Origin: Minisyncoccia bacterium
GTDB lineage: Bacteria > Patescibacteriota > Minisyncoccia > Phycocordibacterales > Phycocordibacteraceae
Length of the DNA: 64,000 nucleotides
Direction of reading: 5' to 3'
NCBI GenBank assembly: GCA_038912545.1
Contig: JBCLFD010000001.1
Span: forward strand, 18,956-82,955
Part shown: positions 4,532-42,320 of the stretch, one piece after another
How the letters are laid out: every line of letters begins with the position of its first letter
Position numbering within the stretch: position 1 is the first letter of the stretch
Program-made: the position numbers and the translations under genes
The notes under the pieces: model-generated
Told to the model about the DNA's origin: nothing
Databases searched by the model: none
Seen by the model: the letters and a program-made list of their open reading frames with translations, nothing else

Positions 4532-4539
4532 TTCACCCG

Positions 4540-4959: not shown

Positions 4960-6509
4960 TCGGACTTGTTGCTATCGTTACGGGTTTTGCGAGCGGGATA
5001 TTTTCCCGCTCGTTGCTTTTTGAGAGTTGGTGGCCGATATTTTTTGCGCTCTTGCTCGCGCTTATATTTTTTGTCGCAAGTTTTCTAACGACGCGCCGAG
5101 CGTACACGCTCGGCGCGTTGTTTTGTATGTGCCTCGTGCTCGGCGGATTGCGTGCTGGGCTCGCCGAGTCGCCGTTACCGAGCACCTTTCTCGCCGACCT
5201 GAAGCATCGCGTCACGTATGAGGCGCTCGTCGTGGGCGATCCTGACCTGCGCGATACGAATCAGCGTGTCGCACTCTTGGTTACGAAAGGAGATGCAAAA
5301 GTAAAAATGCTCGCGGTCGCGTCGCGCACGTCGGAAGTGAAGGTGGGAGACACGGTCAACGTCTCCGGCACGCTCTCGGTCCCCGAATCGTTTGCTGACG
5401 ACAATGGTCGTATTTTTCGTTACGACAAATATCTGGAGCGCGACGGCATTCGCTTTATGCTGAATTTCGCCTATCTGCGTGTCGTGCAGACGGCTCCACG
5501 ATATTCCATACCTGCTGTGCTTGCGCGAATAAAACATTCATTCCTTGACGGACTCCAAGCATCCTTGCCGGAGCCATACGCATCGCTTGCAGGAGGAGTC
5601 GTGATAGGAGGAAAGTCCGGTCTTGGAAATGAACTGAAAGATGCGTTCACGCGCTCGGGGCTCGTGCATATCGTCGTGCTCTCGGGCCACAACGTAATGA
5701 TTGTTGCGAGTTGGGCGATTGCATTCTTTATTTTCTTCTTCGCCCGAGCCGAAACTATCTTTAGAGTTCGCATCCCGCGCGGTGCAAGCATCGTAGCCGG
5801 AGCACTTGCGCTCATTCTCTTCGTCGGCATCGCGGGATTCTCGGCGACGGCAATCCGCGCGGCGCTCATGGCTCTCATCGCGCTCTATGCTCGGGCGACC
5901 GGCCGGACCTATGCGGCCGGTCGCGCGCTCCTTGTTGTTATTTTTCTTATGCTCCTTTGGAATCCCCTCTATCTCGTTTTTGACCCAGGATTCGGTCTCT
6001 CAGTTGTCGCCACTGCAGGGCTCATCTGGCTTGCGCCTATCATTGATACGTTTTTGCCGATGAGAAATGCTTTCTTGAAAAATATATTGGCAACAGCGCT
6101 CGCGGCGCAAGTCGCCGTTCTCCCTCTTCTTTTGTACTTCACTGGCAATCTCTCACTCGTCGCCATTCCCGCAAATATTGTTGCCGCGCTCGTGGTTCCG
6201 TTTGCCATGGCGTTTTCTTATCTCGCCGGCTTCGGCGGAATACTCTTCGGTTCGACTGCGCTCACCGCAGGCGGCTCCTCTACAGCGTTTCTCGCCATCA
6301 TTCTTGGCATGCCCGCGTATGGTGCGGCGACGGCCCTCATTGAGCTCGCACGAGCGAGCGCAGCGCTTCCATTCGCCGCTGTTATGCTCCCGCCCTTCCC
6401 ATTTTGGCTCGTACTTCTCGCGTATACGGCGCTTATTTATTTCGTTGCGTCGTCGTATCGTTTCTCAACGACTGACCAATTAAGGTTCGCGAAAAATGCA
6501 TCCACGTAA
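4956..6509 (+). CDS. comEC: competence protein ComEC/Rec2 (DUF4131 + Competence domain, no MBL domain)
   Basis: Polytopic membrane protein. LAGGVVIGGKSGLGNELKDAFTRSGLVHIVVLSGHNVMIV matches the ComEC core. Confidence 0.75.
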   Translation: MIGLVAIVTGFASGIFSRSLLFESWWPIFFALLLALIFFVASFLTTRRAYTLGALFCMCLVLGGLRAGLAESPLPSTFLADLKHRVTYEALVVGDPDLRDTNQRVALLVTKGDAKVKMLAVASRTSEVKVGDTVNVSGTLSVPESFADDNGRIFRYDKYLERDGIRFMLNFAYLRVVQTAPRYSIPAVLARIKHSFLDGLQASLPEPYASLAGGVVIGGKSGLGNELKDAFTRSGLVHIVVLSGHNVMIVASWAIAFFIFFFARAETIFRVRIPRGASIVAGALALILFVGIAGFSATAIRAALMALIALYARATGRTYAAGRALLVVIFLMLLWNPLYLVFDPGFGLSVVATAGLIWLAPIIDTFLPMRNAFLKNILATALAAQVAVLPLLLYFTGNLSLVAIPANIVAALVVPFAMAFSYLAGFGGILFGSTALTAGGSSTAFLAIILGMPAYGAATALIELARASAALPFAAVMLPPFPFWLVLLAYTALIYFVASSYRFSTTDQLRFAKNAST

Positions 6510-7039
6510 TTCTTTTTATCTGCCGGCACATAATCAACCATAAAGGCGTGCTCCCACATATCCAGTGCGAGAAGTATCGGGAGCCCGGCAAGCTGGCCGA
6601 TCTCATGATCACCCACGAACACAGTATGTAATGTCTTGCCCACGGCATCGTAGTACACGATGACCCAACCGATACCGCGCGTCCCCGCAACTTCTTTCAC
6701 ATGTCCTTCTAACCCCGCGTCGCCATATTTTTCTTTCGCCATTTTTGCCAGACCGCCTTCTGCTTTCTGCATACTGCCTACTGTTTCTAGCTGTTCAAAA
6801 TAATATTCATGCATGCGCATACCGTCAAACTCAAAAGCGAAACGCCGGCGCAATTCGGCGACGGGGTATGGGTCAAGTTCAAGCGTCCCTGCTCGCACGG
6901 CTCCGAGTTTTTCTGCAATTAGATTCGCATGCTTCACATAGCCCTCATAGAGACCGAGATGCACTTTGATTTGTTTTTCTGAAAGTCCCGTCAGTACGGG
7001 GAGGTTAAATGCTTTTGGTTGGTAGGTCATGGGACGCAT
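6437..7039 (-). CDS. Fe/Mn superoxide dismutase
   Basis: LALDMWEHAFMVDY (DxWEHAYY motif) plus N-terminal PYxLP...HLxxH-like region. Confidence 0.9.
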   Translation of the reverse strand: MRPMTYQPKAFNLPVLTGLSEKQIKVHLGLYEGYVKHANLIAEKLGAVRAGTLELDPYPVAELRRRFAFEFDGMRMHEYYFEQLETVGSMQKAEGGLAKMAKEKYGDAGLEGHVKEVAGTRGIGWVIVYYDAVGKTLHTVFVGDHEIGQLAGLPILLALDMWEHAFMVDYVPADKKNYVDAFFANLNWSVVEKRYDDATK

Positions 7040-7051
7040 TATACTAGAATT

Positions 7052-7642
7052 ATGATTCGCTCGCTCTCGCGAACTATTCTCGTCTTGGTCATTATCGGAT
7101 TGACTGCAATAAATGCGTTGGTGTGGCGCACCGCACTTGCACCGCGCGTTTTGACTGTGACGATATTTGAAACGGGGAAGGGGAAGGCCGTTCTCGCGAC
7201 AACTCCTTCTGGTCGTACGTTGCTAATTGATAACAATTCTGACGCGAGCATTCTGCGTTCTCTCGGTAGTACACTCCCGCCTTGGCGCCGCTCGCTTGAT
7301 GTCGTCATTCCCCTCAAAGTTGGCGCGGGTCTCTCTGAAGTCCAAAATCGCTATCACATCACACGTCTTATGCGCTCGCTCACTCGCGGACAACGCATCA
7401 ACTTTCACGACGGCACTTTCATAGATGTCCTGTGGCCCCCGAACAAAGTGGGCGAGGCTCCAGTATTCCTCTTGTCTTACGGCACCACCTCTTTCCTCAT
7501 CAAGCCGCTTATATCAGCGCGTACCGAAAAATATCTCGCTTCTATTTCTTCATCTCTCCCTTCGCCCTCTTTTGTTATCTCCTCCAGCACCCCTGCTGGC
7601 GTTTTCATCTCAAACGGCGTCACGGTCTCAACCAACAAATAA
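7052..7642 (+). CDS. ComEC-C-terminal-like MBL-fold protein (degenerate, HxHxDH motif absent)
   Basis: VTIFETGKGKAVLATTPSGRTLLIDNNSD resembles the ComEC lactamase_B segment, but the metal-binding His are missing. TM at the N-terminus. Confidence 0.4.
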   Translation: MIRSLSRTILVLVIIGLTAINALVWRTALAPRVLTVTIFETGKGKAVLATTPSGRTLLIDNNSDASILRSLGSTLPPWRRSLDVVIPLKVGAGLSEVQNRYHITRLMRSLTRGQRINFHDGTFIDVLWPPNKVGEAPVFLLSYGTTSFLIKPLISARTEKYLASISSSLPSPSFVISSSTPAGVFISNGVTVSTNK

Positions 7643-7751
7643 ACATATCCCAAATAATCCACGGTCGTAGCATTTATGGGATATATCTCGTGTACCTTAA
7701 TTCACGCTATAGCGTAAATTAAGGTTATGTGGAGTTTGATATAATGGTTTT

Positions 7752-8426
7752 ATGGGAATGGAAGGCGAAAAGATAAATTTGAATCGTAGGGAATTTCTTA
7801 AAGTTCTTGGTGCCACGGCCGTTACTGGGATGTTGCCTATAGAAGATGCTGGAGCCGTTGAAAAAAAGAAACCGATATCACCGAGCTTGAGAGGTTCACC
7901 TGAATCACAGAGGAGACAGAACGAGAAAGCCGACAAAGTGAACCTCTCTCGTATCAAGGATGATGCTCAACTGGAAAAGTTTAAGGAATTGAAATTGCTT
8001 GTTCCAATTCCGCAGAACGAGACAGTTCAGATTGATCCTCGACTAGCAGAAAAGTGGCGCTGGGTTCGTCCGTGGACAACAAAATTTCTCAAAGATATCG
8101 GGCGAGAATACTATAGCCAATTCAAAAAACCGATACAGGTAAATTCTGCGGTGCGAACAGTGGAGCGCCAGAACGAACTGCGGGGTACAAACAGAAATGC
8201 GGCGTCAACTGAAGGAGATAAAAAATCATCCCATCTGACTGGTGCGGCTATTGATATTGCGAAGATAGGAATGTCACCCACAGAGCTTGTGTGGATGCGT
8301 AATCGATTGCTCGCTCTTGAGAAACGCGCATTAATTGAAGCAACCGAGGAGAGAAGGCAGCTTGTTTTTCATATCATGGTGTTCAAAAACTACTCCCGTG
8401 TGGGGAGTGTTTCGAAAACTAAATAA
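7752..8426 (+). CDS. Tat-signal secreted peptidase M15-like / DUF5715-like protein
   Basis: RREFLK twin-arginine motif. SSHLTGAAIDIA fits the SxHxxGxAxD zinc D,D-peptidase motif. Confidence 0.5.
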   Translation: MGMEGEKINLNRREFLKVLGATAVTGMLPIEDAGAVEKKKPISPSLRGSPESQRRQNEKADKVNLSRIKDDAQLEKFKELKLLVPIPQNETVQIDPRLAEKWRWVRPWTTKFLKDIGREYYSQFKKPIQVNSAVRTVERQNELRGTNRNAASTEGDKKSSHLTGAAIDIAKIGMSPTELVWMRNRLLALEKRALIEATEERRQLVFHIMVFKNYSRVGSVSKTK

Positions 8427-8458
8427 CCCCGACTTTTGAGAGCGCGGCAAAGGCACCG

Positions 8459-8740
8459 TTAACGGCGTTTTTCCATCTCTTGGTACACGACAGAACGGTG
8501 AAGAATGGCGAAAATGAGAACTTTGCTAGATTGAATACGAAAAACAACTCGGTAGTCGCCGACACGGAGCTTGCGATATCCCTTCAGAGAACGGCGCAAT
8601 GGTCTGCCAAAGAAGTCAGGGCTCGTGGTGAGCTTTTCATCAATCGCGTCGCGAATCTTTTCTCGCCATGCTGGCGCGAGGTGGGGGATGTCGAACTTAA
8701 CGACGATGTCGCGATAAACAACTTCAAACATTAGCGCCAT
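8459..8740 (-). CDS. RelE/ParE-family type II toxin
   Basis: KLRVGDYRVVFRIQSSKVLIFAILHR matches RelE/StbE. It overlaps the upstream antitoxin gene by 10 nt. Confidence 0.75.
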   Translation of the reverse strand: MALMFEVVYRDIVVKFDIPHLAPAWREKIRDAIDEKLTTSPDFFGRPLRRSLKGYRKLRVGDYRVVFRIQSSKVLIFAILHRSVVYQEMEKRR

Positions 8741-8952
8741 GCCTCTTCGTGAGAAATGAATGTGGCGCCCTTCGTATCACGACTCATTGCAACGAAATTC
8801 AGCACTTCGTCCTCTTCAAGCTCAAGTGCCTTTATCAACAGGTGTTCGGCTTTCGTCGCTTGAGGCATCTGATCGCGTTTCGCGAGCCGTCCAAGCATAG
8901 TATCGAGCTCGCGAGAGACACTGATATTAATACGTTTCTTGGTAGTAGCCAT
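8731..8952 (-). CDS. RHH/RelB-type antitoxin
   Basis: 73 aa, ribbon-helix-helix-like N-terminus (RINISVSRELDTMLGRLA), immediately upstream of and overlapping the toxin. Confidence 0.65.
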   Translation of the reverse strand: MATTKKRINISVSRELDTMLGRLAKRDQMPQATKAEHLLIKALELEEDEVLNFVAMSRDTKGATFISHEEAWR

Positions 8953-8959
8953 ATACTAA

Positions 8960-9018
8960 AGTGTATCAGAAGTGTATCACCTGTGCAACTTCTTCCCTGT
9001 GGACACTAAGTGTCCACA
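8960..9018 (-). promoter_or_regulatory. putative TA operator: tandem direct repeats AGTGTATCA x2 (8960-8979) plus a perfect 10-bp inverted repeat TGTGGACACT-a-AGTGTCCACA (8998-9018)
   Basis: Repeats sit immediately 5' of the antitoxin start on the minus strand, typical of RHH autoregulation. The palindrome could alternatively terminate rpmB. Confidence 0.4.
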
Positions 9019-9021
9019 AAA

Positions 9022-9264
9022 TTAAATACGACCGGCTTTTTTGAGAGCAGCGAAGGCGCCGTTCTTTTTTATCGTTTTAAGGCCGTTCGCCGAGACGTCA
9101 ATGATAATCGTCTTGCCGAGCTCTGGCACATAGATGCGACGGCGCTGAAGATTCGCCTTACGACGCACCTTGCCGGTGGGGTTAAACTGCGTCGCACGAG
9201 TACGGTTAGAATACCGCCCGCCGACTTGCGTGCTCTTACCAGTTATTTCACAAGCGCGTGCCAT
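9022..9264 (-). CDS. rpmB: 50S ribosomal protein L28
   Basis: MARACEITGK...VSANGLKTI matches the L28 family. Confidence 0.85.
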   Translation of the reverse strand: MARACEITGKSTQVGGRYSNRTRATQFNPTGKVRRKANLQRRRIYVPELGKTIIIDVSANGLKTIKKNGAFAALKKAGRI

Positions 9265-9302
9265 AGTCGCAACATGGTAGCATGGGATTCAAAACGAGCA
9301 AA

Positions 9303-9935
9303 ATGACTTTACTTCTCGCCCTCATCGTTCTCATTCTCTCCATTATCCTCCACGAGGTGGCGCACGGCTACGCTGCCGACTCGCTCGGCGACCCGACCGC
9401 GCGTCTCGCCGGTCGCCTGACTCTTAATCCGGTCCCACATATTGATCTTATGGGTTCCATCGTACTTCCGGCATTACTGGTATTCACTCAATCGCCGATT
9501 CTCTTCGGTTGGGCGAAGCCGGTTCCCTATAATCCCTATAATCTGCGCAATAAGCGCTGGGGGGAGGCGCTCGTCGCTGTTGCGGGCTCGGCAACGAACA
9601 TTCTGCTCGCCATTATCTTTGGTCTCATTGTGCGCTATGGGGCGGGGCTTGGCTTTGATGCCACCGCACTTTCTCTGGCTTCCACGATTGCATTCGTCAA
9701 TCTCTTTTTAGGACTCTTTAATCTCATCCCGATACCCCCTTTAGACGGCTTCACGACTCTGCGCGCGCTCCTGCCATGGAATCTCGCCCAGAGTCTTATT
9801 CGTTTTGAAAATCAAATCCGCGCTGGAGGTGCTCTCTCACTCATCCTCTTCCTCCTCATTTTCTACTACGTTCTTGCTGTCCCTTTCTTCAAGCTTGTTA
9901 TGTATCTCTTCGGTCTCCTTATTGGTGGCGTGTAG
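9303..9935 (+). CDS. site-2 protease family (M50) zinc metalloprotease
   Basis: HEVAHG HExxH motif in TM1, LNPxxHxD, multiple TM segments. Start trimmed to MTLLLAL. Confidence 0.7.
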   Translation: MTLLLALIVLILSIILHEVAHGYAADSLGDPTARLAGRLTLNPVPHIDLMGSIVLPALLVFTQSPILFGWAKPVPYNPYNLRNKRWGEALVAVAGSATNILLAIIFGLIVRYGAGLGFDATALSLASTIAFVNLFLGLFNLIPIPPLDGFTTLRALLPWNLAQSLIRFENQIRAGGALSLILFLLIFYYVLAVPFFKLVMYLFGLLIGGV

Positions 9936-9974
9936 TCGTACAGAGAGGCGCGGGCGACTGTTATAATAAAACCG

Positions 9975-10418
9975 ATGGAGTACCAAGTTCCGCAGTTTAT
10001 TGAAGTGGAGGATAAGGTCGTTGGACCACTGACGCTCCGACAATTTATCTATCTCGCCGGCTCTGGCGGTATCTGTGTCATCCTCATCGCCTACCTGCCA
10101 CTCGTTTTCGCGATTCTGCTCTGCATCCCCGTTGTTGCGCTCGGTGCCGCGCTTTCTTTTTATAAAGTAAACGGTAAATCGTTTATAGAAATTCTTGAAG
10201 CGGGCTTCAATTATTACACTGGAGCAAAGATGTTTCTCTGGAAGCGGGAAGCGCCGAAAGCAGAGAAGCCCGGCGCTGCAGCGGCTGCTGCCGCAGCCGC
10301 TGAGGCCGCGCTTCATCCAAAACACGCTCCGCGTCTCACAAGCGGAAAGCTCACCGAGCTCGCGTGGTCGTTAGATATTCAGAAACCAGACACTAACATC
10401 CTAGAGCCAAAATCCTAA
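9975..10418 (+). CDS. PrgI/VirB3-like small membrane protein (T4SS-associated)
   Basis: Two adjacent TM helices after a short N-terminus, poly-Ala/Lys tail, position directly 5' of the VirB4 ATPase. Confidence 0.55.
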   Translation: MEYQVPQFIEVEDKVVGPLTLRQFIYLAGSGGICVILIAYLPLVFAILLCIPVVALGAALSFYKVNGKSFIEILEAGFNYYTGAKMFLWKREAPKAEKPGAAAAAAAAAEAALHPKHAPRLTSGKLTELAWSLDIQKPDTNILEPKS

Positions 10419-10423
10419 TTTGT

Positions 10424-11062
10424 ATGTCTACTCCAACCATCGGCGCCACACAGCATTTCGTTCCCGTTAAAGAGATCCGGAACGGTACCATTATCCTGAA
10501 TGATGGCGGGTATCGCGGTATCCTTATGTGCTCCTCTATCAACTTCGGTCTCAAGTCGGCCGACGAACAGCACGCCATCACGCTTGGATTCCAAAACTTC
10601 TTGAATATGCTTGATTTCTCTATTCAAATCGTTATCAACTCGCGCAAAATGGACCTGCGTCCCTATCTCGCACTCTTAGAGGGGAAATCCGCCGACCAAA
10701 AGACCGAACTAATGCGCATTCAACTGCGTGAATATGTGGAATTCGTCCGTTCGTTCGCCGATCAGGCGAATATTATGACGAAAATGTTTTATATCGTTGT
10801 GCCGTACGCGCCGAGAGCGAGCGTGGCAAATGTTCTGCATACAATCAGCTTTCTCGGCGGGAAGAAAGAAACTCAAGCGGTTCGTGACAGCTCTTTTGAA
10901 GAAGACCGTATCCAGCTTGAACAGCGCCTCTCGCTCGTTGCAGGAGGACTTGAAGGCACCGGCGTGCGCGCGGTCCCTCTCGGCACCGAAGAAGTGATTG
11001 AGCTCCTCTATCGGGCGTTCAATCCGGGCGAGCTGGAGAATCCGATTCGTCTTGATGCATGA
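10424..11062 (+). CDS. VirB4/TraC-type ATPase, N-terminal domain fragment (separate ORF)
   Basis: VPVKEIRNGTIILNDGGYRGILMCSSINFGLKSADEQ matches the start of the CagE_TrbE_VirB N-domain. Ends 36 nt before the ATPase ORF. Confidence 0.6.
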   Translation: MSTPTIGATQHFVPVKEIRNGTIILNDGGYRGILMCSSINFGLKSADEQHAITLGFQNFLNMLDFSIQIVINSRKMDLRPYLALLEGKSADQKTELMRIQLREYVEFVRSFADQANIMTKMFYIVVPYAPRASVANVLHTISFLGGKKETQAVRDSSFEEDRIQLEQRLSLVAGGLEGTGVRAVPLGTEEVIELLYRAFNPGELENPIRLDA

Positions 11063-11098
11063 TTATGATGTGTAAACTTTTAAATATTTAAATATTTT

Positions 11099-12913
11099 AT
11101 GTCCTTACTCGACTTTCTCAACAAAAAGAATCAAGAAACGCCGGAGATTGTGCCGGTCCTGCCGAAAGACATCTACCGACAGGGGACACTGAATCTCGTT
11201 GATACGATAGCGCCAACCGCGCTGAAGATCGGCTCGCGCGAGCTGGAGCTCGGAGAGAAGTTCGTCCGTGCATTTTATACAATCTCCTATCCGCGTTTTC
11301 TAGCGGACAGCTGGTTCTCGCCAGTGGTGAATCTGGATAAAGTGCTGGATGTCTCAATCTTCATCCACCCGATAGACACCGAGCAGGCGCTCCGCAATTT
11401 CCAGAAAAAGGTCGCCGAGGTGGAGAGCCAGATTAATGAACGCGAGACGAAGGGCCTTGTGCGCGATCCGATGCTTGATACCTCCCACCAGGACCTTGAG
11501 TCGCTCCGCAACAATCTCCAACAGGCGCAGGAAAAACTTTTTGATGTCGGTCTTTACCTTGCGCTTTACGGCGACTCCCGAGAAGAAATTGACAAAACCG
11601 AGGGCGATATCCGCGGGATTCTTGATGCGAAGCTCGTTTACACCAAGCCCGCGCTCTTCCAACAGGAACAAGGATTCCGCTCCTGCCTCCCACTCGGCAC
11701 CGATGAACTCTTGGTTAATTCTAAACTGAATTCGTCGCCCCTCTCGTCGTTCTTCCCCTTCGTTTCGTTTGACCTCACGAGCGATCGCGGGATTCTCTAC
11801 GGGATAAATAGGCATAATTCATCCCTCATCCTCTTTGACCGCTTCTCGCTGGAGAATTACAACTCGGTCGTCTTCGCAAAGTCTGGCTCGGGCAAGAGTT
11901 ATGCGACGAAGCTGGAGGTACTTCGTTCGCTTATGTTCGGCACCGACGTCATCGTCATTGACCCAGAGCGCGAATATGAACAGCTCGCCGAGGCCACCGG
12001 CGGTCGTTCCTTCAATATCTCGCTCTCATCCGAACATCACATCAACCCTTTTGACCTCCCTCCGGTAAAGGAGGATGAGGACCCTCGCGATATCCTGCGC
12101 TCTAACATTATCAATCTCGTCGGGCTTTTCCGCCTTATGCTCGGCGGGCTCTCGCCAACCGAGGACGCGATTATTGACCGTGCCATCAGCGAGACGTATG
12201 CACTTAAAGACATCACCGGCGACGCAGACTTCACCGGTGCGGAACCGCCCTTGCTCTCCGACTTTGAACAAGTGCTCTCTGGCATGGAGGGAAGCGAATC
12301 CCTCGTGGAGCGACTCTCCAAATATACACGCGGGACGTGGTCGGGGTTCCTCAACCAGCCGACGAATATCAATATCAATCAGCAGTTCGTCGTCTTCTCG
12401 GTACGTGATATGGAGGATGAGTTGAAACCGATTGCGATGTATATCACGACGCACTACATCTGGAACGCGATACGTCACGAACTGAAGAAACGCCTGCTCA
12501 TTATTGACGAGGCATGGTGGATGATGAAGAGCGAAGACACAGCGAGCTTCCTCTACAGTATGGCAAAGCGCGGACGCAAATATTATCTCGGCGTCTGCAC
12601 CATCACGCAGGACGTGGAGGACTTCTTAAAGAGCCCGTACGGGAGGCCGATTCTCACAAACTCTTCACTTCAGCTCCTCTTGAAACAATCACCGACGACA
12701 ATTGATGTGCTCCAGCAGACATTTAATCTCACCGACGAAGAAAAATATCTCCTGCTGGAAGCGGGTGTGGGGGAGGGGCTCTTCTTCGCAGGGCTGAAGC
12801 ACGTCGCGATAAAGGTCGTCGCGAGCTATACCGAGGATCAAATCATCACCTCCGATCCTTCCCAGCTCATTGCGATTAAACAAGAGAAGGATCGCCATGC
12901 CGCGCAACAATAG
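11099..12913 (+). CDS. VirB4/TraC-type conjugal-transfer ATPase (core)
   Basis: FVRAFYTISYPRF N-domain continuation. Walker A AKSGSGKSY, Walker B LLIIDEAWWMM. Confidence 0.8.
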   Translation: MSLLDFLNKKNQETPEIVPVLPKDIYRQGTLNLVDTIAPTALKIGSRELELGEKFVRAFYTISYPRFLADSWFSPVVNLDKVLDVSIFIHPIDTEQALRNFQKKVAEVESQINERETKGLVRDPMLDTSHQDLESLRNNLQQAQEKLFDVGLYLALYGDSREEIDKTEGDIRGILDAKLVYTKPALFQQEQGFRSCLPLGTDELLVNSKLNSSPLSSFFPFVSFDLTSDRGILYGINRHNSSLILFDRFSLENYNSVVFAKSGSGKSYATKLEVLRSLMFGTDVIVIDPEREYEQLAEATGGRSFNISLSSEHHINPFDLPPVKEDEDPRDILRSNIINLVGLFRLMLGGLSPTEDAIIDRAISETYALKDITGDADFTGAEPPLLSDFEQVLSGMEGSESLVERLSKYTRGTWSGFLNQPTNININQQFVVFSVRDMEDELKPIAMYITTHYIWNAIRHELKKRLLIIDEAWWMMKSEDTASFLYSMAKRGRKYYLGVCTITQDVEDFLKSPYGRPILTNSSLQLLLKQSPTTIDVLQQTFNLTDEEKYLLLEAGVGEGLFFAGLKHVAIKVVASYTEDQIITSDPSQLIAIKQEKDRHAAQQ

Positions 12914-13523
12914 TAGTCCGCCACCACCGCCCGTGATGACGTGGGGCAAAGCATCTCCGATTCTCATCGTCTCCGGCATTTTTGATGCTCTTCGTTATAT
13001 GTTTTTGATGTTTTGGTTTTTCGGACCGGCTCTGGCAGCCCTCTACTGCACCGTCAAAACTAGCGCGGTGGTCGGGACGACTATAGGAGGGTTCGCGTGT
13101 ACAACAGGAGCTGCGGTGGTTGGTTTCTACGGGGCGCCCATCTTTGCCGCCTTTGGTACTATCATGGCGATGGCGACTGCGCTCGCTGGATTCCTCACCG
13201 TATTCCTTCTTCTCGCCATTATGAATAGTCGTGTATTCAAAGAGCCAACGACAATTTTGTGGGCATTGTTCGGCCTTACTATCAGCATCACCGTCACGGT
13301 GTGGCGGCTCTACAGCGCGCAGATTAAAACCGAAAAGGCTGCCTATAAAAAATGGGAAAAGGAAACTGCAGATGCGCGTGCGCGCGAACAACAACAGCGC
13401 GCTCTACAAGCTCAGCAAGCCCAACAAGCCCAGCAGATGCAACAGACGCAAGCGGAGCAAATTGCTGAACAAGAAGAAACACAACAAGAGGAACAAAAGA
13501 GTCGCGCGGAGGCGTTATACTAG
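12897..13523 (+). CDS. polytopic membrane protein with Gln/Glu-rich C-terminal coiled tail (T4SS-cluster protein)
   Basis: 3-4 TM helices, then QQQRALQAQQAQQAQQMQQTQAEQ. ATG at 12897 overlaps the VirB4 stop; an alternative start is at 12936. Confidence 0.5.
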   Translation: MPRNNSSPPPPPVMTWGKASPILIVSGIFDALRYMFLMFWFFGPALAALYCTVKTSAVVGTTIGGFACTTGAAVVGFYGAPIFAAFGTIMAMATALAGFLTVFLLLAIMNSRVFKEPTTILWALFGLTISITVTVWRLYSAQIKTEKAAYKKWEKETADARAREQQQRALQAQQAQQAQQMQQTQAEQIAEQEETQQEEQKSRAEALY

Positions 13524-13527
13524 AGAC

Positions 13528-14505
13528 ATGCGATATGCGCTTCTGATAGGACTTATGCTCGTGGCGCCGATGATGGTGTCGGCGCAGTATATGACGAGTA
13601 CGGATCCATTCAACCTCACGGTCACGCCTCAGTATCCCGTACCGAATAGTTCTGTCACTCTCACCGCACTCTCTGCGGGCATTGATCTCGCGAACGCGAC
13701 AATGGATGTTTCTGCGAACGGTACGTCGGTCTACAAGGGCTCGGTACGCGCGGTTGATGTCCCAGTCCTAGGCGCCGGCGTGCTCATTAATATACGAGTA
13801 GTGATAACGAGCAATGGCGCGAGCGCGAGCCAGACGGTTTCTGTCCGCCCGCAGGACCTCGTGCTTATAACTGAACCGCTCGCGACCGCACCACCGCTCT
13901 ATCTCGGCAAAGCACTTCCGCCTCTCGGCGGGAGTGTGCGCATTGTCGCCGTAGCAGGATTTAAAAATGGAAGCGGTACCGCGCTTGACCCCGCGAAACT
14001 CTCGTATGCGTGGAAGGTGGACGACGCTCTCCAGGCGAATATGTCGGGTATCGGTAAGAGCGCGATTATCGTCGCGACACCGCTTCAATATCGCAATCGC
14101 AGTGTGTCGGTGGTCGTCCAGAGCCAAGACGGCTCTCTCGTGACCGGCGCATCGCTCTCGCTCGCCCCTCACGAACCGACCGTTCGTATTTATGAAAATG
14201 ACCCCCTGCTCGGCATCCGCTTTGACCGCGCACTATCGTCTTCATACTCCATCACTGATGCAGAATCCTCGCTCTATGCTGGCCTCTATTCATTCCCGAC
14301 TGGAGCGGGCACATCCGCGATTAATTGGTATCTAAATGGTGCACTCGCACAGAGCGGTACAACGATAACACTCCGTCCCACGGGGCTAGGGAAGGGGAAT
14401 GCCTCTCTTTCGCTCGTCGCGGCAATAGGCGACCTTGTGAGCGCAACACAATCGCTTCAAATATTATTCGGGGCGAAGCCCACATCTAATTTCTTCGGCT
14501 TATGA
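13528..14505 (+). CDS. secreted protein (signal peptide, Ala/Ser/Val-rich, beta-rich)
   Basis: MRYALLIGLMLVAPMMVSAQ signal peptide. The listed N-terminal extension is basic read-through, so the start is trimmed. Confidence 0.5.
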   Translation: MRYALLIGLMLVAPMMVSAQYMTSTDPFNLTVTPQYPVPNSSVTLTALSAGIDLANATMDVSANGTSVYKGSVRAVDVPVLGAGVLINIRVVITSNGASASQTVSVRPQDLVLITEPLATAPPLYLGKALPPLGGSVRIVAVAGFKNGSGTALDPAKLSYAWKVDDALQANMSGIGKSAIIVATPLQYRNRSVSVVVQSQDGSLVTGASLSLAPHEPTVRIYENDPLLGIRFDRALSSSYSITDAESSLYAGLYSFPTGAGTSAINWYLNGALAQSGTTITLRPTGLGKGNASLSLVAAIGDLVSATQSLQILFGAKPTSNFFGL

Positions 14506-15458
14506 TGAGAAAAACTTTTATAACTTTGTCGCTCTTCGCCATCGCATTTGTGGCAACGTCCGCGCACGCTCAAGAATTCATCCCGCTCGCGCCCATTCCG
14601 GGCCTCACCACAGGAATAACAGCAGATCAGGCGGGTCTCGCGAACTTTTTAAATAATCTTTACAAATATCTCATTGGTCTTGCTGCTGTTATCGCGGTGG
14701 TAGAGATTATCTGGGGCGGTCTCCTCTATTCCACACAGGATGTGCCGGGATCGAAAACGAATGGAAAAGAAAAAATCCAGAATGCACTCCTCGGCCTCGT
14801 CCTCGTCCTCTCCCCCGTCCTTGTCTTCTCCATCATCAATCCAAGCATCCTGAATCTCTCCATCAATCTCCCGGAGCTCGACACAAAATCCGGCGCTCCG
14901 AATCAAACAGGGGGTACGGGAGGAACTGGGACTCAAACTGTTGATGCTACAACTAACTGTACTGTGACGGGCACGATTGGCATCCTCCAGATTGCGACTT
15001 GTCCAACAGAGTCTGCATCAAAAACATGGGGGGCGACGTGTACGTGGGGTAATTTGTCGTCAATTGAACCCCTCACGATTAGTGCTGGTGGTGCCGTTGC
15101 ACAAAATACAATTTCCTGCTCTAACAAAAACAGTTATGTATTCATAGAGACGATAGGTGTAGTAAGCTTTTCGAAAGCAATAAATACTCTTCGTCCATTA
15201 GCCCAGACTGTCGACAATTCCGAGAATGCATCATCTGCAATTTCGTTTGCGAATATTTGTAATGCAGCAGGACGAAAAACATGCATAAGTGACATCCCTA
15301 AGGTTACTTTTTCCGTTGAGTGTTTACCAAAACCAATGACACAAATTCCTGCCTCATCCGGAGGAAGCGGCAAATGCTATAAAGAGACACTTACTTGTGA
15401 AAATGTAAGCGGAAATACAAAGTGTGTTGCAACTCCTGATTGGACACCATTCCAATAA
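14502..15458 (+). CDS. TrbC/VirB2-like pilin-fold protein with Cys-rich C-terminal extracellular domain
   Basis: Signal peptide, two hydrophobic helices (YLIGLAAVIAVVEIIWGGLLY; ALLGLVLVLSPVLVF), then a ~190-aa domain with 12 Cys. Confidence 0.5.
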   Translation: MMRKTFITLSLFAIAFVATSAHAQEFIPLAPIPGLTTGITADQAGLANFLNNLYKYLIGLAAVIAVVEIIWGGLLYSTQDVPGSKTNGKEKIQNALLGLVLVLSPVLVFSIINPSILNLSINLPELDTKSGAPNQTGGTGGTGTQTVDATTNCTVTGTIGILQIATCPTESASKTWGATCTWGNLSSIEPLTISAGGAVAQNTISCSNKNSYVFIETIGVVSFSKAINTLRPLAQTVDNSENASSAISFANICNAAGRKTCISDIPKVTFSVECLPKPMTQIPASSGGSGKCYKETLTCENVSGNTKCVATPDWTPFQ

Positions 15459-15460
15459 AT

Positions 15461-17095
15461 ATGCGACGGACACTTACCATCATCGCAGTTGTGATAGTCC
15501 TCGGAGGACTTGTGGTGTGGGCGTATTTCTCATTCTTCGCAAATCAGGCGGGCATTACGGTCGCGCCAACGGGTACGACGAGCTTGCCGGGAGCAGGGCA
15601 GGCGACTACCCCCACTCAGGGCGAGACGGCGTCTCCGGCGACGACTGCGGTCACTACAGCGGCTGGTGCACGGTTGGTGAAGATAAGTGCGGGGCCGGTG
15701 GTGCCGAGCCCTATTGTTTACAGAAGCACGTCAACAACAACACCAGGATTCTTTGTAAACTACATTGAGCGACAGAGCGGAAACGTTTTCTCCTATTCGT
15801 CTGTCACCCGTTCATCCACGAGAATAAGCAACAAAACCGTTCCGGGAATCCAGTTGGCAGTGTGGCTTCCGAGTGCCCAGACGGCGTTTGTGCGCTATCT
15901 ATCGGGCACTGATTCTACAACTATCAATACGTACGCTCTGAACGCGGACGGTTCCGACGGTTTCTTTTTGGAACAAAATCTCGCTGATATCGCCGTTTCT
16001 TCAACCAGTATTTTGACTCTCGCGTCTGGCGTAACCGGCTCGGTCGCGTCCACCCGCCGCACCGATGGGACGCGCTCGGTTGAAGTGTTTTCTTCGCCAC
16101 TCTCCTCTCTCCGAGTCGCCCTCGCCGGTAAGAATCGTTATTTCGCCTTTACCAATCCTTCGTCATCTCTCGGTGGAGCGGTATTTCTTGTTGATGGTGC
16201 TGGTCGGCTCTCTCGCATCGCCGGTCCTCTAAACGGACTCGTCGCTCTCCCGAGCCCTTCGGGCGCGACCGTGCTCGTGAGCTATGTGGTCGGCGGCGCG
16301 ATGCAGATGGAGCTTGTGAACACCGCGACCGGCGCCGTGACTCAACTCCCGGTCGCTACTATCGCCGACAAATGTGTCTGGGCTGCTGACAACTTGGCGG
16401 TCTATTGTGGTATCCCAATGAACCCTCCGGCGAACTACACCTACCCAGACGACTGGTACCAGAGCGCAATTTCATTCTCTGATCGTATCTGGAAGATTAA
16501 TGTCGCCGGACGCTATGCTGAATTGGTCCTTGATTTCTCAAAAGAAAATGATATCGCTCTTGATGCTGTGGCTCTTTCTATTGATTCTGCCGGAACGGCA
16601 CTCTCCTTCATCAATAAAATAGACGGCTCTCTCTGGGTATATTCACCACAAATATCGTATCAAGAAGCATCGCAAACATCGCCAGCCCCAACCATTCAAG
16701 TGCCAGTTTCACAAAAAACACCATCAATCAATCAAAATACACCCTCCTCAACAAACAATTCAGAAGTAAATACCCCTCCCGTTTCAACAGGAGCACAAAC
16801 TAACAATCAACTAACGCCAAATCCAACAACATCCGTACCGTCAAGCGTTTCTGTAAACATACAAGGTTTTGCGTTTAATCCCTCAACACTGACAATTAAA
16901 AAAGACACAAAGGTTACGTGGACTAATAATGACAGTGTAATTCATACTGTAACTTCTGATTCCGGTAATCTTCTAAATTCGCCAACACTTTCTCCTGGAA
17001 CATCTTTCAGTTTTACTTTCGCCAACACTGGTTCACTAACCTATCATTGTGCTGTTCACCCGACTATGAAAAGCACAATTATTGTTGAAAACTAA
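15461..17095 (+). CDS. membrane-anchored protein with C-terminal amicyanin/plastocyanin-like cupredoxin domain
   Basis: N-terminal TM, Thr/Ser-rich linker. C-terminus KVTWTNNDSVIHTV...YHCAVHPTM carries type-1 Cu ligands His, Cys-x2-His-x2-Met. Confidence 0.65.
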   Translation: MRRTLTIIAVVIVLGGLVVWAYFSFFANQAGITVAPTGTTSLPGAGQATTPTQGETASPATTAVTTAAGARLVKISAGPVVPSPIVYRSTSTTTPGFFVNYIERQSGNVFSYSSVTRSSTRISNKTVPGIQLAVWLPSAQTAFVRYLSGTDSTTINTYALNADGSDGFFLEQNLADIAVSSTSILTLASGVTGSVASTRRTDGTRSVEVFSSPLSSLRVALAGKNRYFAFTNPSSSLGGAVFLVDGAGRLSRIAGPLNGLVALPSPSGATVLVSYVVGGAMQMELVNTATGAVTQLPVATIADKCVWAADNLAVYCGIPMNPPANYTYPDDWYQSAISFSDRIWKINVAGRYAELVLDFSKENDIALDAVALSIDSAGTALSFINKIDGSLWVYSPQISYQEASQTSPAPTIQVPVSQKTPSINQNTPSSTNNSEVNTPPVSTGAQTNNQLTPNPTTSVPSSVSVNIQGFAFNPSTLTIKKDTKVTWTNNDSVIHTVTSDSGNLLNSPTLSPGTSFSFTFANTGSLTYHCAVHPTMKSTIIVEN

Positions 17096-17187
17096 CCTAA
17101 TTGTTTCGCTCTAAATTCCGATTGTCTCATTATTTCTACGGTCGTAAGTAAGTTGTGCTGATTAACATGTTTGGTCTGTTGGGTTGT

Positions 17188-17940
17188 TTACTCGGGAATG
17201 GTAAGAGATTTTGAGGCAGAACCCTTGGCGAGAGAGCGGCGCATATGCAATTCTTGGAGAGATCCGACGAGGTTTGTGGTGATGAAGTACAAAGCGAGGG
17301 CACTTGAAGTTGTATAGGAAATAATGCCAATAAGGAAGGGAAATACATATTTGAGCTGGAGGCCCATAATCTTTTGAAAGTCACCCTGCATACCGCCCGT
17401 GCTGGAGGGTTTCATCGTTCCTGCGAGAGAGAGATGTGCTTGAAGATATTGTGTGAGCCCTGCAAGTACTGCGAGCACAATACTCTTGCCCGTTACCGCA
17501 ATAATACCAAGTAGATTGAGCGATACCTCATCAGGAACTGGAGTAAATGAATATAAAAGTGCCGTATTTGCTCCCGAAAACGGTTCATAAAAGAATACCC
17601 AATAGAGAGCGAGAAGAACAGGGATTTGAATAAACACCATTAAGATACTGGCAAAAGGATTCACTTTTGCCTCTTTATAAAGAGAGAGTGTCGCTAGTGC
17701 TTCTTTTTCTTTATTCCCTTTGTGGATTTCCTTGAGCTCTTTTAGTTTCGGTTCCAAGTCTCTCATAGCGTGCTGTGTGCGCGCTGCAGCGAGAGAGAAT
17801 GGAAGAAGAATAAGCCGAATGACTATCGTGAGGAGGATAACGGCGATGCCGATGTCCGAACCTGGTACAAGCGCCACAAGCGCCACAAGCGCATTGTAGA
17901 TTGGATCATAAAAAACGGCGTGGAAAAATGCAGATATCAT
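17188..17940 (-). CDS. yidC: membrane protein insertase YidC (short form)
   Basis: YidC/Oxa1 core TM pattern, plus synteny with rnpA-rpmH-dnaA. Confidence 0.85.
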   Translation of the reverse strand: MISAFFHAVFYDPIYNALVALVALVPGSDIGIAVILLTIVIRLILLPFSLAAARTQHAMRDLEPKLKELKEIHKGNKEKEALATLSLYKEAKVNPFASILMVFIQIPVLLALYWVFFYEPFSGANTALLYSFTPVPDEVSLNLLGIIAVTGKSIVLAVLAGLTQYLQAHLSLAGTMKPSSTGGMQGDFQKIMGLQLKYVFPFLIGIISYTTSSALALYFITTNLVGSLQELHMRRSLAKGSASKSLTIPE

Positions 17941-17950
17941 GTGGTAAGAA

Positions 17951-18250
17951 TCACGAAATAAGTTTAGTAAGTTCTAATTGCATTTCATCATACCTCATGT
18001 CCTTAACTCCCGCTCGCGGAAAGACAATTAGGCCCTTAGGGAGAGGAAGTGTCCGAAGAACTTCCAGTATTCGCCGTTTGATACGGTGGCGCGTCACTGC
18101 GAGGCGGGCTATCTTCTTCGACACGACGACGGCATAACCGGATTCTGTTTCGGACCGAACGATGGAAAAATGTGTAGAGGAATGGCGTTTGCCTGATTTT
18201 AATGTAGTCTCAAAAACCGTGCGAGAGAGCCGATTTCGGCGCTTAAACAC
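17951..18250 (-). CDS. rnpA: ribonuclease P protein component
   Basis: HFSIV...GYAVVVSKKIARLAVTRHRIKRR. GTG start chosen 7 nt after the rpmH stop; the longer listed ORF runs through rpmH. Confidence 0.7.
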   Translation of the reverse strand: MFKRRNRLSRTVFETTLKSGKRHSSTHFSIVRSETESGYAVVVSKKIARLAVTRHRIKRRILEVLRTLPLPKGLIVFPRAGVKDMRYDEMQLELTKLIS

Positions 18251-18257
18251 AGGACAT

Positions 18258-18395
18258 TCAGGCGGTGAGCTGGGTACGGCTGGCGCGACGCCGGCGGCGT
18301 ACAATCTTACGCCCAGAACTCGTCTTCGCACGCACCCGAAATCCGTGGGTCTTCGCGCGTTTTCTCTTTTTTGGTTGATAGGTTCGTTTAGCCAT
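18258..18395 (-). CDS. rpmH: 50S ribosomal protein L34 (not in the ORF track, under 60 aa)
   Basis: Manual translation of the minus strand gives [45 protein letters not shown]. Confidence 0.8.
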
Positions 18396-18486
18396 GATGA
18401 AATATAGTTATACACACCATACTAACAGGTTCTCCCCAAAACGCTAGAGTGCTTGTCTTTTTGAGAAGCGTATAATCAAGAACACT

Positions 18487-19951: not shown

Positions 19952-21052
19952 ATGAATATTTCAATAGAAAAAAAGAAATTTATAGAGTCTGTGCATATCG
20001 TCGCGCGATTTGCACAACGCAAGGAGGGGACGCTCGCTGCACTTTCGTCCATTCTCATTATCGCCAGTGATGATGGAATTAAAATGCGCGCCACTAATCT
20101 TGAGACCGGTATTGATCTCACTTTAGAAGGGAAACATACAACAAATGGCGCAGTAGCGATCCCCGCAACCATTCTCGGACAAATTGCACACTCTATTTCT
20201 GGAGAAGGATTCATTACACTTGAACACATTGGCGACGTCGCCACTCTTAAAAGCGGAACTGGAAAAAGCTCTATTAAAACAGTCCCGTACGAGGATTTTC
20301 CATCTATTCCTTTCCCCGAGAATCCAAAAAACAGGATTGTTATTTCAGGAACTCTCCTTAAAAATCTTTTTAGTTCCATAGCACCTTGTGCATCCACATC
20401 AACCATTCGTCCAGAATTGGCGAGTGTGTATCTCTCTATTGAGGGCGGAATACTCACTATCGCCGCAACTGACTCTTTTCGTCTTGCTGAGAAAAGGGTC
20501 CCATTAAGCAACAATGGAATACAAGGAAAATTTCTCATCCCAGCAAAAAACGCACTTGATATATCACAGGCGCTCCCAGATGAAGATATTATTATGTCGT
20601 TTGACGAGCATCAATGCGCTTTTATTTCGCCAAGCAGTATGATCGTCTCTCGTCTTACAAGCTCTGTATATCCAGACTATCACCAAATTATTCCAAAAGA
20701 ATCAATCGTTGATGCTGTCATTCTACGCAAAGATTTTGAATCGGCATTGAAGTGCACATCCATCTTCTCCGATACGTATCAGAAGGTGCGCATAAATTTT
20801 GATCCAAAAAAGAATCAATTCAGTATTTATGCACACAATACCAATATTGGAGAATCACTAGAAACACTCTCAGCACAAACACACGGCAGTCCTCTAGACC
20901 TTTCGTTTAATCACCGCTACCTATCAACAATACTCTCACTCACTTCTGCAGAGAGTATTTCGTTCACCGCTGCTGGTATAGGCCGACCACTTATAATTAA
21001 AGGTGTCGGCGACGCCTCACTCCTCTATCTCGTCTCACCAATGAATCAGTAA
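19952..21052 (+). CDS. dnaN: DNA polymerase III beta sliding clamp
   Basis: Three-domain beta-clamp pattern, position after dnaA. Confidence 0.9.
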   Translation: MNISIEKKKFIESVHIVARFAQRKEGTLAALSSILIIASDDGIKMRATNLETGIDLTLEGKHTTNGAVAIPATILGQIAHSISGEGFITLEHIGDVATLKSGTGKSSIKTVPYEDFPSIPFPENPKNRIVISGTLLKNLFSSIAPCASTSTIRPELASVYLSIEGGILTIAATDSFRLAEKRVPLSNNGIQGKFLIPAKNALDISQALPDEDIIMSFDEHQCAFISPSSMIVSRLTSSVYPDYHQIIPKESIVDAVILRKDFESALKCTSIFSDTYQKVRINFDPKKNQFSIYAHNTNIGESLETLSAQTHGSPLDLSFNHRYLSTILSLTSAESISFTAAGIGRPLIIKGVGDASLLYLVSPMNQ

Positions 21053-28223: not shown

Positions 28224-28247
28224 ATGCGCAAATGGTACCATGCACAC

Positions 28248-34094: not shown

Positions 34095-34106
34095 TCTCTC
34101 CTTGAT

Positions 34107-35954: not shown

Positions 35955-36076
35955 ATATTAATTATATCATACATTACTCCACTCCACGCGTCAGACCCGA
36001 ATGTCTTGCCTTGCCTCGAAAAAACGAATGAAGACATTCATTTGTTACTCGGCTCGTTAGGTAGTAGGGTGGCGGG

Positions 36077-42179: not shown

Positions 42180-42234
42180 GGAAAAATGATAGCATAAAGA
42201 CAGAACAGCTTGTTGTGACGTCTTGCACAAGTCC

Positions 42235-42263: not shown

Positions 42264-42320
42264 ATTCAAGTTAGCTTGTCCTTTTCACTCTGAATTACTT
42301 GGCTCAAGGAGGGCCCAAAT

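Follow-up and report, generated by a model that had tools for sequence, protein, structure and literature searches.

The question raised by this locus is whether a cluster of seven genes resembling a type IV secretion system (T4SS) belongs to a mobile conjugative element or is a resident part of the chromosome. We analysed a 64-kb stretch of contig JBCLFD010000001.1 (hereafter the window), in which the module occupies positions 9975-17095, flanked by 10 kb upstream and 47 kb downstream. To judge from its sequence relatives, the source organism is a bacterium belonging to the candidate phyla radiation (CPR/Patescibacteria), class Paceibacteria, and Kaiserbacteria-like. A preliminary description of this DNA had proposed a compact T4SS-like module built around a VirB4 ATPase, with a composition unlike that of canonical conjugation systems, which could serve DNA uptake or host attachment rather than conjugation. 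The explanation we favour, with a probability of about 85%, is that the locus is a vertically inherited, origin-proximal T4SS of the Patescibacteria clade in a Kaiserbacteria-like (class Paceibacteria) genome, and not a mobile conjugative element. The T4SS-like, non-conjugative reading is correct but already published, and only a few details of the window copy are unusual.

The module consists of seven plus-strand open reading frames (ORFs), numbered g1 to g7 in Table 1 and separated by +5, +36, -17, +4, -4 and +2 nt, in agreement with the seven co-directional genes and the spacing of -17 to +36 nt first reported. Curated cutoffs were passed for three T4SS families, NF045971, PrgI and T4SS_pilin. 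In a profile search, g1 matched PF12666 PrgI (6.3e-11, 43.1 bits; cutoff 27), which bears out the earlier PrgI/VirB3-like call. The ATPase had been described as a VirB4-class protein divided over two ORFs, with AKSGSGKSY as Walker A and LLIIDEAWW as Walker B motif, and the preliminary description had staked its case on a match to VirB4 models. That match was found: g3, in which both motifs are intact, aligned to positions 183-733 of NF045971, 'VirB4-like conjugal transfer ATPase, CD1110 family' (5.6e-114, 382 bits; cutoff 325), while g2 aligned to the preceding positions 2-162 of the same model and to positions 104-233 of NF045975. In addition, g3 matched PF19044 (2.3e-25) and, among PDB entries, the VirB4 C-terminal domain 4AG5 (6e-45) as well as TrwK. 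VirB4 N-terminal models were matched by 31/31 orthologues of g2 and the TrsD/TraD model NF041427 by 28/31, and the g2 orthologue in relative L081 carries the precomputed Pfam entry PF26593 TraC-like. Since a profile of the 31 g2 orthologues gave 0 matches at E<=1 against PDB sequences, it is the NCBIfam models that tie g2 to VirB4.

The comparison with relatives used 80 species-level genome loci surrounding VirB4 relatives, onto which every window protein was mapped. Separate g2 and g3 ORFs are kept in 78-80 of the 80 loci, and the 36-nt spacer between them in the window is AT-rich with three in-frame stops. The division of VirB4 is therefore real, and stop recoding or sequencing error was rejected as its cause. 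The 120 best database matches of VirB4, like the 80 genome loci, all came from Patescibacteria metagenome-assembled genomes (MAGs) at 73-95% identity; the top homologues, of ~605 aa and 88-95% identical, belong to MAGs of Candidatus Kaiserbacteria, Paceibacterota and Minisyncoccota.

Orthologues of the module genes were recovered in most of the loci (g1, 76; g2, 79; g3, 80; g5, 77; g6, 62; g7, 67), together with those of yidC (67) and dnaA (62). Gene order is kept across loci, with g1 directly upstream of g2 in 76/80 and with g6 and g7 swapped in a few, where they are still linked. The position is equally stable, the slot beside yidC-rnpA-dnaA being constant in at least 58 species-level genomes, and because yidC, rnpA, dnaA and dnaN lie immediately downstream, the module adjoins the replication origin. 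Identity of g3 to the 80 relatives ranges from 73 to 92%, and it is 85-92% across the whole close clade. In the 58 loci with the full gene set, median identity is 79% for VirB4, 73% for DnaA, 50% for DnaN and 45% for YidC; VirB4 is conserved above DnaA in 58/58 genomes, and the divergence of the module genes follows that of DnaA (Spearman 0.78-0.88). This conservation and parallel divergence argue that the module is a vertically inherited, strongly constrained chromosomal system and not a mobile element. The GC content of g1-g7 is like that of the flanks, the sole anomaly being a cupredoxin tail at the end of g7.

We also looked for the genes that a conjugative element would carry. Pfam scanning covered 24 other window ORFs, including every ORF >450 aa except one of 729 aa; no type IV coupling protein (T4CP), relaxase or integrase domain was found among these 24, small ORFs not having been scanned exhaustively. 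The scanned ORFs encode housekeeping and cell-envelope functions, namely PolA, GlmS, ArgRS, PGK, RecJ, ComEC, a PilB-like protein, PilM, a histidine kinase, a subtilase, VanY, an ABC ATPase and an IS110 transposase. Likewise, no relaxase, T4CP or integrase is annotated within 10 kb on either side of the module in relatives L081 and L083, where the flanks are again housekeeping: ComEC, superoxide dismutase, L28, an M50 protease, DnaA/N, a penicillin-binding protein (PBP) and RuvABC. Neither relaxase nor coupling protein was thus found among the scanned ORFs or in these two sets of flanks, and the fixed position and flank-like GC content are also unlike such an element. The earlier report that relaxase, coupling protein and VirB6 are missing holds for the first two in the scanned ORFs and in the L081 and L083 flanks; for VirB6 it is true of the window only, because the gene lies upstream of PrgI in 47/80 relatives.

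In these 47 loci (L020, L024-L080), extra same-strand genes stand directly upstream of PrgI: ksgA, a gene for a ~350-aa transmembrane (TM) protein, one for a ~450-800-aa secreted protein, one for a 760-950-aa polytopic protein of extended VirB6/TrbL-like type, and one for a small protein. The polytopic protein of L025 matches PF04610 TrbL/VirB6 with 31.5 bits (cutoff 25.9) and that of L020 matches PF19597 TrbL_4 with 29 bits (cutoff 27). The sister Paceibacteria clusters of this kind (L020, Kaiserbacteria RIFCSPHIGHO2_12_FULL_56_13; L025) share g1-g3 and g5-g7 with the window and have a g4-like ORF in most cases, encode a VirB4 85-88% identical to that of the window, and are flanked by yidC-rnpA-dnaA wherever the contig reaches; they differ in the upstream ksgA and VirB6-like block, of which the window has none. 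The block families gave no tblastn match to the 64-kb window, to L081-L083 or to any of 21 close-clade loci whose upstream sequence spans at least 4 kb; the place of the block ahead of PrgI is taken in the close clade by genes for ribosomal protein L28 and an M50 protease. Since L020, with a VirB4 88% identical to that of the window, retains the long form, sequence comparison indicates that the window's subclade has most likely separated or lost the VirB6-containing half. Because so many relatives have a VirB6/TrbL-like gene upstream of PrgI, the seven genes first described as a compact module are probably only part (about half) of a larger apparatus.

This architecture is a catalogued one. 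Quinonero-Coronel et al. (2025, Microb Genom; PMC12102498) surveyed 3,035 Patescibacteria genomes, found VirB4 in 2,417 of them, and placed nearly all of these proteins in one clade nested within the monoderm MPF-FATA class. The combination of PrgI, a TrsD-like protein, VirB4 and a VirB2-like pilin beside dnaA, with no relaxase, was recorded there in 2,407 Patescibacteria assemblies, including Kaiserbacteria, so that the composition cannot be called unrecognised; the available part of the genome table in PMC12102498 mentions Kaiserbacteria 58 times. The neighbours of virB4 listed in that survey are TrsD (homologous to the N-terminus of VirB4), PrgI/VirB3 and VirB2-like pilins, and more rarely VirB6, which is frequent rather than universal (480 homologues in the 3,035 genomes); relaxases near virB4 numbered only 15, and T4CPs are rarely adjacent. 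Paceibacteria clusters lie near dnaA, dnaN and rnpA, and the T4SS loci of class ABY1 are found together with comF/recG/radA (PMC12102498). The window locus agrees in its monoderm-type VirB4, the adjacent TrsD-like protein, PrgI, the pilin and the site near dnaA/dnaN/rnpA. It departs from the pattern in VirB6: neither g4 nor 10 of its orthologues matched TrbL/VirB6, and tblastn found nothing of the extended family in the window.

Experimental work on this family comes from other lineages. Wang et al. (2023, Cell; PMC10633639) showed by transposon sequencing that the T4SS cluster of Ca. Southlakia epibionticum (hereafter Southlakia), including its pilin array, is essential for epibiotic growth. 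That cluster (SEML1_0006-0019) comprises PrgI, a 293-aa hypothetical protein, a 612-aa VirB4, a VirB6-like protein, an NTF2-like protein and the pilin array (PMC10633639). A 2025 review singles out these T4SSs and relates that deletion of Southlakia comEC abolishes competence and not viability, whereas the T4SS is essential (PMC12857230); the two functions are therefore separable, and competence does not explain the essentiality. In a cultivated Minisyncoccota parasite, tubular structures that are possibly T4SS pili reach the host, and uptake of host RNA has been proposed (bioRxiv 10.64898/2026.06.21.733656). A non-conjugative, host-interaction role has been proposed for the T4SS family as a whole (PMC12102498, PMC10633639, PMC12857230).

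Compared with the Southlakia system and the Patescibacteria clade generally, the window locus has the same trio of PrgI, TrsD-like protein and VirB4 (~605-612 aa) in the same order, one or more VirB2-like pilins of PF18895, no relaxase or T4CP nearby and a chromosomal location. Whereas Southlakia has an array of 6 short pilins, the single pilin of the window bears a head that is large, variable and rich in Cys, and the window cluster lacks the VirB6-like, NTF2/VirB8-like and peptidoglycan-hydrolase genes that Southlakia carries as SEML1_0011-0013 and downstream hydrolases. It adds a secreted protein with three immunoglobulin (Ig)-like domains, a TM-anchored beta-propeller and a strain-specific cupredoxin tail; the main text of the published account mentions neither propeller nor cupredoxin. 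With the monoderm MPF-FATA conjugation systems (pGO1 TrsC/TrsD/TrsE, pCF10 PrgI/PrgJ, C. difficile CTn2 CD1110, ICEBs1 ConD/ConE) the window shares PrgI and a VirB4 above the CD1110-model cutoff, with pGO1 also a separate TrsD-like N-domain protein, and like them it has no outer-membrane core components. In contrast to these conjugation systems, the module is fixed in the chromosome and vertically inherited, with no relaxase, T4CP, VirB1-like hydrolase, VirB8-like protein or VirB6 detected in the window, and unlike Gram-positive systems it has a VirB2-like pilin (PMC12857230). The archaeal Ced system (CedA/CedB) is another VirB4/HerA-type ATPase system with a non-conjugative use that co-occurs with type IV pili. 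However, no CedA-like component was identified, and the CedB resemblance of g3 is confined to the P-loop region and far below the cutoff.

The pilin g6 is the most variable part of the module. Its N-terminal part passes the PF18895 T4SS_pilin cutoff (8.5e-10, 39 bits; cutoff 26.6) and also matches TrbC/VirB2 (3.8e-5), so the VirB2/TrbC-like pilin call stands, although the extension said to hold 12 Cys has 10, at positions within 153-308. By BLASTP, residues 1-131 are identical between the window and strain L082 (GCA_038912405.1). The following head of ~187 residues (window 14895-15458 versus L082:3598-4140) shows ~20% identity to that otherwise ~97%-identical strain, whereas it is 42-50% identical to the heads of the more distant L083 and L007. 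At the DNA level the head could not be aligned by blastn to either L081 or L082. Heads of the window type were seen in L007, L083, L008 and L017, and those of the L082 type in L011 and L004. The distribution of head types is thus at odds with genome relatedness and points to recombinational exchange. Across 62 orthologues the head varies from 140 to 580 aa and from 0 to 19 Cys. These comparisons indicate that the head has been swapped in cassette-like fashion between strains that are ~97% identical. No silent pilin-head cassette was found in the 64-kb window.

The two proteins encoded between VirB4 and the pilin had been described as a polytopic membrane protein with a Q-rich tail and a 325-aa secreted protein with a signal peptide, and both descriptions were retained. 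By sequence and hydropathy, g4 has four TM segments and a tail, presumably cytoplasmic, that is first K/R-rich and then Q/E-rich. It is recognisable by sequence in just 24/80 loci; most loci have, after virB4, an ORF of 120-280 aa with 3-4 TM segments, and ~15 lack one. A Pfam scan of g4 and 10 orthologues, including versions of 426-604 aa, returned no VirB6/TrbL and no other credible family; the reading of g4 as VirB6 was set aside without being disproved. The protein has 208 aa in the window and 604 aa in L081, where the counterpart of window 13398-13511 (L081:6921-8274) is longer by 1.35 kb and adds a Pro-rich linker and a ~250-aa C-terminal domain without a Pfam match. Compared with L081, then, the window copy seems to have undergone a loss of 1.35 kb, or ~400 residues at the C-terminus. 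For g5, an AlphaFold2 (AF2) model based on 67 homologues (mean predicted local distance difference test score, pLDDT, 77) adds three Ig-like domains at residues ~28-117, 137-212 and 218-314; the AF2 alignments were shallow, with sequences at least 52% identical to the query. Foldseek returned generic Ig-repeat, adhesin and complement matches only, and BiPBP_C was weakly matched in 41/67 homologues.

The last gene, g7, had been taken for a membrane-anchored, amicyanin-like cupredoxin protein. The anchor and the cupredoxin are there, but the conserved part of g7 is a membrane-anchored 7-bladed beta-propeller and the cupredoxin makes up only the last ~83 residues. This tail matches PF00127 Copper-bind (33.6 bits; cutoff 21.2) and PF13473 (32.5 bits; cutoff 27). 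Its His/Cys/His/Met ligands, in the segments ...VIHTV... and YHCAVHPTM, align to the C-terminal cupredoxin of the copper nitrite reductase NirK 9cck (1.4e-17) and also to 5fc9, a Nitrosopumilus-type blue copper protein, and to amicyanins, which makes it a putative type-1 blue copper domain with a complete ligand set. It scored below the amicyanin equivalog TIGR02657 (41.4 bits; cutoff 110.2) and by sequence is amicyanin-like only loosely, as a short cupredoxin with a C-x2-H-x2-M loop. The AF2 model of this part was poor (pLDDT 27-66). Kaiserbacteria have been reported with cupredoxins in connection with NirK (PMC5581439); nothing in the window links the g7 tail to a NirK-type pathway, and no second cupredoxin was found there.

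The cupredoxin cannot be counted as a conserved component of the module. All 183 homologues compared, 63 locus orthologues and the 120 best database homologues, end at about residue 402 without it, one of them 91% identical. Window 16637-17227 (~590 bp) is represented by just 36 bp in L081 (GCA_038912675.1), the closest long relative at 86-94% nucleotide identity. The GC content of the extension is 36-41%, compared with 55% for the g7 core, and its closest metagenomic relatives (<=55% identity) are mostly small stand-alone proteins from varied organisms, built of a signal or TM segment, a low-complexity linker and a cupredoxin. A contig end of a second assembly, L082, carries the last 57 nt of the cupredoxin, together with the junction on the yidC side, at 99.4% identity; since the 3' end is found there too, the tail is not private to one assembly. 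We considered whether a neighbouring cupredoxin gene had been fused to g7 by loss of a stop codon; because g7 abuts or overlaps yidC in relatives, they have no room for such a gene. The simplest history suggested by the sequences is a recent in-frame capture of the foreign linker and blue-copper part of a gene of the stand-alone kind. The cupredoxin is not part of the conserved mechanism; it is a low-GC, strain-specific add-on. In L083, g7 is fragmented.

As a separate observation on the same region, L082:5109-5435, at the end of a 5.4-kb contig, matches window 17036-17362 but runs in the opposite direction, the join being at window 16431 with 8 nt of overlap. An assembly chimera is the likelier cause; the alternative is an inversion by which g7 and yidC are disrupted.

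Several other explanations of the locus were weighed against the favoured one. A conventional integrative conjugative element (ICE), with relaxase, coupling protein, VirB6/VirB8 and oriT just outside the window, would suit the fit of VirB4 to the family model of CD1110 from the conjugative transposon CTn2, the IS110 transposase at 47-1120 and the fact that the window covers only 10 kb upstream of the module. We hold this to be extremely improbable given the same slot beside yidC-rnpA-dnaA in at least 58 species-level genomes, the divergence parallel to that of DnaA, the housekeeping content of 10 kb to either side in L081 and L083, the lack of any GC anomaly over g1-g7 bar the cupredoxin tail, and the mere 15 relaxases near virB4 in 3,035 genomes of the phylum (PMC12102498). 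An import machine for DNA, of competence type or Ced-like, working with the nearby ComEC and type IV pilus genes, is unlikely, if less so. It would draw on the position of comEC 3.5 kb upstream, on the type IV pilus genes in the window, on weak local matches of VirB4 to CedB (1.3e-7) and CedD (2e-5), on the comF/recG/radA co-localisation in ABY1 (PMC12102498), and on the presumed scavenging of nucleic acids by the organism, a relative of which has been given an RNA-feeding model. However, g3 scores 30.7 bits against a cutoff of 700 for the CedB equivalog model NF041017, over ~70 residues around the P-loop (439-509); the L28/M50-protease flank that lies between comEC and PrgI is detectable only in the closest 23 of the 80 loci; and in Southlakia comEC is dispensable for viability while the T4SS is essential (PMC12857230). 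Because of this linkage confined to the closest loci and the dispensability of comEC, the proximity of comEC and type IV pilus genes is no evidence for uptake. Of the earlier alternative of DNA uptake or host attachment in place of conjugation, what the literature proposes is a non-conjugative, host-interaction role.

The two remaining alternatives concern the state of the machine and its last domain. Without VirB6 and its partners the locus might be a decaying remnant with no working channel, serving as an adhesion pilus only or on its way to a pseudogene; the VirB6/TrbL-like gene and three partner families are unmatched in the window and in 21 close-clade loci with at least 4 kb upstream, g4 is ~400 C-terminal residues shorter than in L081, and g7 is fragmented in L083. 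Yet none of the seven ORFs is broken, VirB4 keeps 85-92% identity throughout the close clade and exceeds DnaA in conservation, both Walker motifs are intact, and the missing genes may have another location in the genome, the usual situation for T4CP genes of this phylum (PMC12102498), so we think decay very unlikely. It is just as hard to credit that the cupredoxin is a functional, integral redox subunit, for example one exchanging electrons at the host interface. An in-frame fusion that is open and keeps the full set of type-1 copper ligands, the last 57 nt and 3' junction reproduced in a second assembly and the Kaiserbacteria cupredoxins reported alongside NirK (PMC5581439) would fit such a role, whereas the tail is missing in the 63 locus orthologues and 120 database homologues, including the 91%-identical protein, has a foreign GC content (36-41%), and is most similar (<=55% identity) to small secreted cupredoxins that stand alone in a variety of organisms.

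We therefore return to the resident, vertically inherited T4SS and to how it may work. The evidence favours a host-contact apparatus with fast-evolving specificity, because the motor is under strong purifying selection, the pilin head is fast-evolving and cassette-swapped, the system is essential in Saccharibacteria, and tubular contacts occur in a cultivated relative. In systems with a VirB2 pilus, the established role of VirB4 is extraction of pilin from the membrane and its polymerisation, and the termini of F and VirB2 pilins face outward. Going by homology to characterised T4SSs, the PrgI/VirB3-like and TrsD-like subunits would hold a VirB4 hexamer to the membrane and complete it, and this hexamer would pull the VirB2-like pilin from the membrane and polymerise it into a tube or pilus. 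The disulfide-rich C-terminal head of g6 would then be displayed outside the filament, as are the F and VirB2 termini, and may act as a fast-evolving, recombination-swapped surface for host recognition. The Ig-repeat protein g5 and the propeller g7 could be wall-spanning or adhesive accessories. Such an apparatus would mediate, to meet the needs of the epibiont, contact-dependent exchange of macromolecules with the host, by effector export or import of host material, and not plasmid transfer; the VirB6/TrbL-like channel and three further genes would have moved elsewhere or been lost in the window's subclade.

Some points weigh against this account. Homologues of VirB6, VirB8 and VirB1 are undetectable in the window. 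The placement of VirB4 in the Patescibacteria clade follows from its 73-95% identity to Patescibacteria proteins, and operon status from spacing and synteny only. Having no functional annotation, g4, g5 and g7 have been given roles that are guesses from fold and position. The essentiality and the pilus idea are carried over to Paceibacteria from Saccharimonadia and from one preprint. One combined proposal is a doubtful one: that Kaiserbacteria-type Paceibacteria use an architecturally distinct T4SS in which a single pilin with a swappable, disulfide-rich head decorates the filament and sets host specificity, the three-Ig protein and the propeller replace VirB8, VirB1 and an adhesin, the VirB6-like genes are unlinked from those of the ATPase, and the propeller of this strain bears a captured type-1 copper domain. 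If true, the captured domain could bring a redox-active centre to the site where the organism, which has no respiratory chain, contacts its host.

The features of the locus and its surroundings are collected in Table 1. Gene starts were chosen by homologue support: that of g4 is an ATG lying within a TTG ORF that begins at 12870, the same start as called in L081, and that of g7 is Met8 of a TTG ORF at 15440, a residue invariant in 65 homologues. A scan for promoters and terminators over 9200-17400 yielded counts that did not exceed those expected from shuffling, and no operon boundary was read from it. The comEC and type IV pilus genes noted earlier in the window include confirmed ComEC, PilB-like and PilM ORFs, but the proposed pilN and pilO lack a Pfam match.

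Table 1. Positions of the module genes, their parts and other features (window coordinates unless a locus is named).
Feature	Position	Strand	Basis or remark
g1, PrgI/VirB3-like 2-TM protein, 147 aa	9975..10418	+	PF12666 match
g2, TrsD-like stand-alone VirB4 N-terminal domain, 212 aa	10424..11062	+	NF045971/NF045975/NF041427 matches
g3, VirB4 ATPase body, 604 aa, Walker A and Walker B	11099..12913	+	NF045971, PF19044, 4AG5
g4, small 4-TM membrane protein, putative cytoplasmic Q/E-rich tail, 208 aa	12897..13523	+	sequence and hydropathy
g5, secreted protein, signal peptide, three predicted tandem Ig-like beta-sandwich domains, 325 aa	13528..14505	+	AF2
g6, whole gene	14502-15458	+	
g6, N-terminal part: signal peptide and VirB2-like T4SS pilin domain, residues 1-131	14502..14894	+	PF18895
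g6, C-terminal part: hypervariable head domain, 10 Cys, residues 132-318	14895..15458	+	strain comparison
g7, whole gene, from supported start	15461-17095	+	
g7, core, residues 8-402 of 551-aa ORF: TM helix at the N-terminus, disordered linker, beta-propeller ectodomain with 7 blades	15461..16645	+	
g7, tail: S/T/P/N/Q-rich linker (16646-16843) and putative type-1 copper cupredoxin domain (16844-17095)	16646..17095	+	PF00127
yidC	17188-17940	-	
rnpA	17951-18415	-	
dnaA	18487-19839		
dnaN	19952-21052		
ComEC	4956-6509		3.5 kb upstream of module
PilB-like T2SSE ATPase	26571-28385	-	
PilM	45109-46206		
Proposed pilN/pilO ORFs	46082-47277		no Pfam match, positional assignment only
729-aa ORF	22079-24268	-	annotated PBP orthologue (Transgly/Transpeptidase) in L081
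IS110-family transposase	47-1120		window edge, 9 kb from module
Upstream block with VirB6-like gene, examples	L020:2439-8906 (VirB6-like gene 5835-8246; partner genes 3236-4288, 4285-5838 and 8253-8906); L025:4390-8018 (VirB6-like gene 5742-8018)		

Outside the module, the window differs from L081 at two further places. At 7619-9022 it has a 1.4-kb insertion where L081 has 68 bp, containing a DUF5715/M15-like peptidase with a twin-arginine translocation (TAT) signal (7752-8426), a ParE toxin (8459-8740, minus strand) and an antitoxin-like small ORF (8731-8952, minus strand). Between dnaN and the PBP gene, an insertion of ~1 kb relative to L081 (21052-22118) contains a VanY D-Ala-D-Ala carboxypeptidase with a peptidoglycan-binding domain (21046-22056, minus strand). 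Low-GC patches occur at 34000-36000 (0.37) and 42000-45000 (~0.40), against ~0.50 overall, the first of them holding a subtilase S8 with a peptidoglycan-binding domain (34107-35954, minus strand), and both may be acquired islands.

Taken together, the interest of this T4SS, as the first shown to be essential for its owner and as a monoderm system with pilins, is that of the published Patescibacteria family and not of the locus itself. What the locus adds is a defined, conserved set of three uncharacterised envelope proteins (the 4-TM, the three-Ig and the propeller protein) for the Paceibacteria version, a VirB6-containing half unlinked or lost in one subclade, and a one-off blue-copper fusion. 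In addition, the exchange of pilin heads between near-identical strains makes the head a candidate determinant of host range. While these details open no new question, they may be of use in choosing targets in the few cultivable Paceibacteria.

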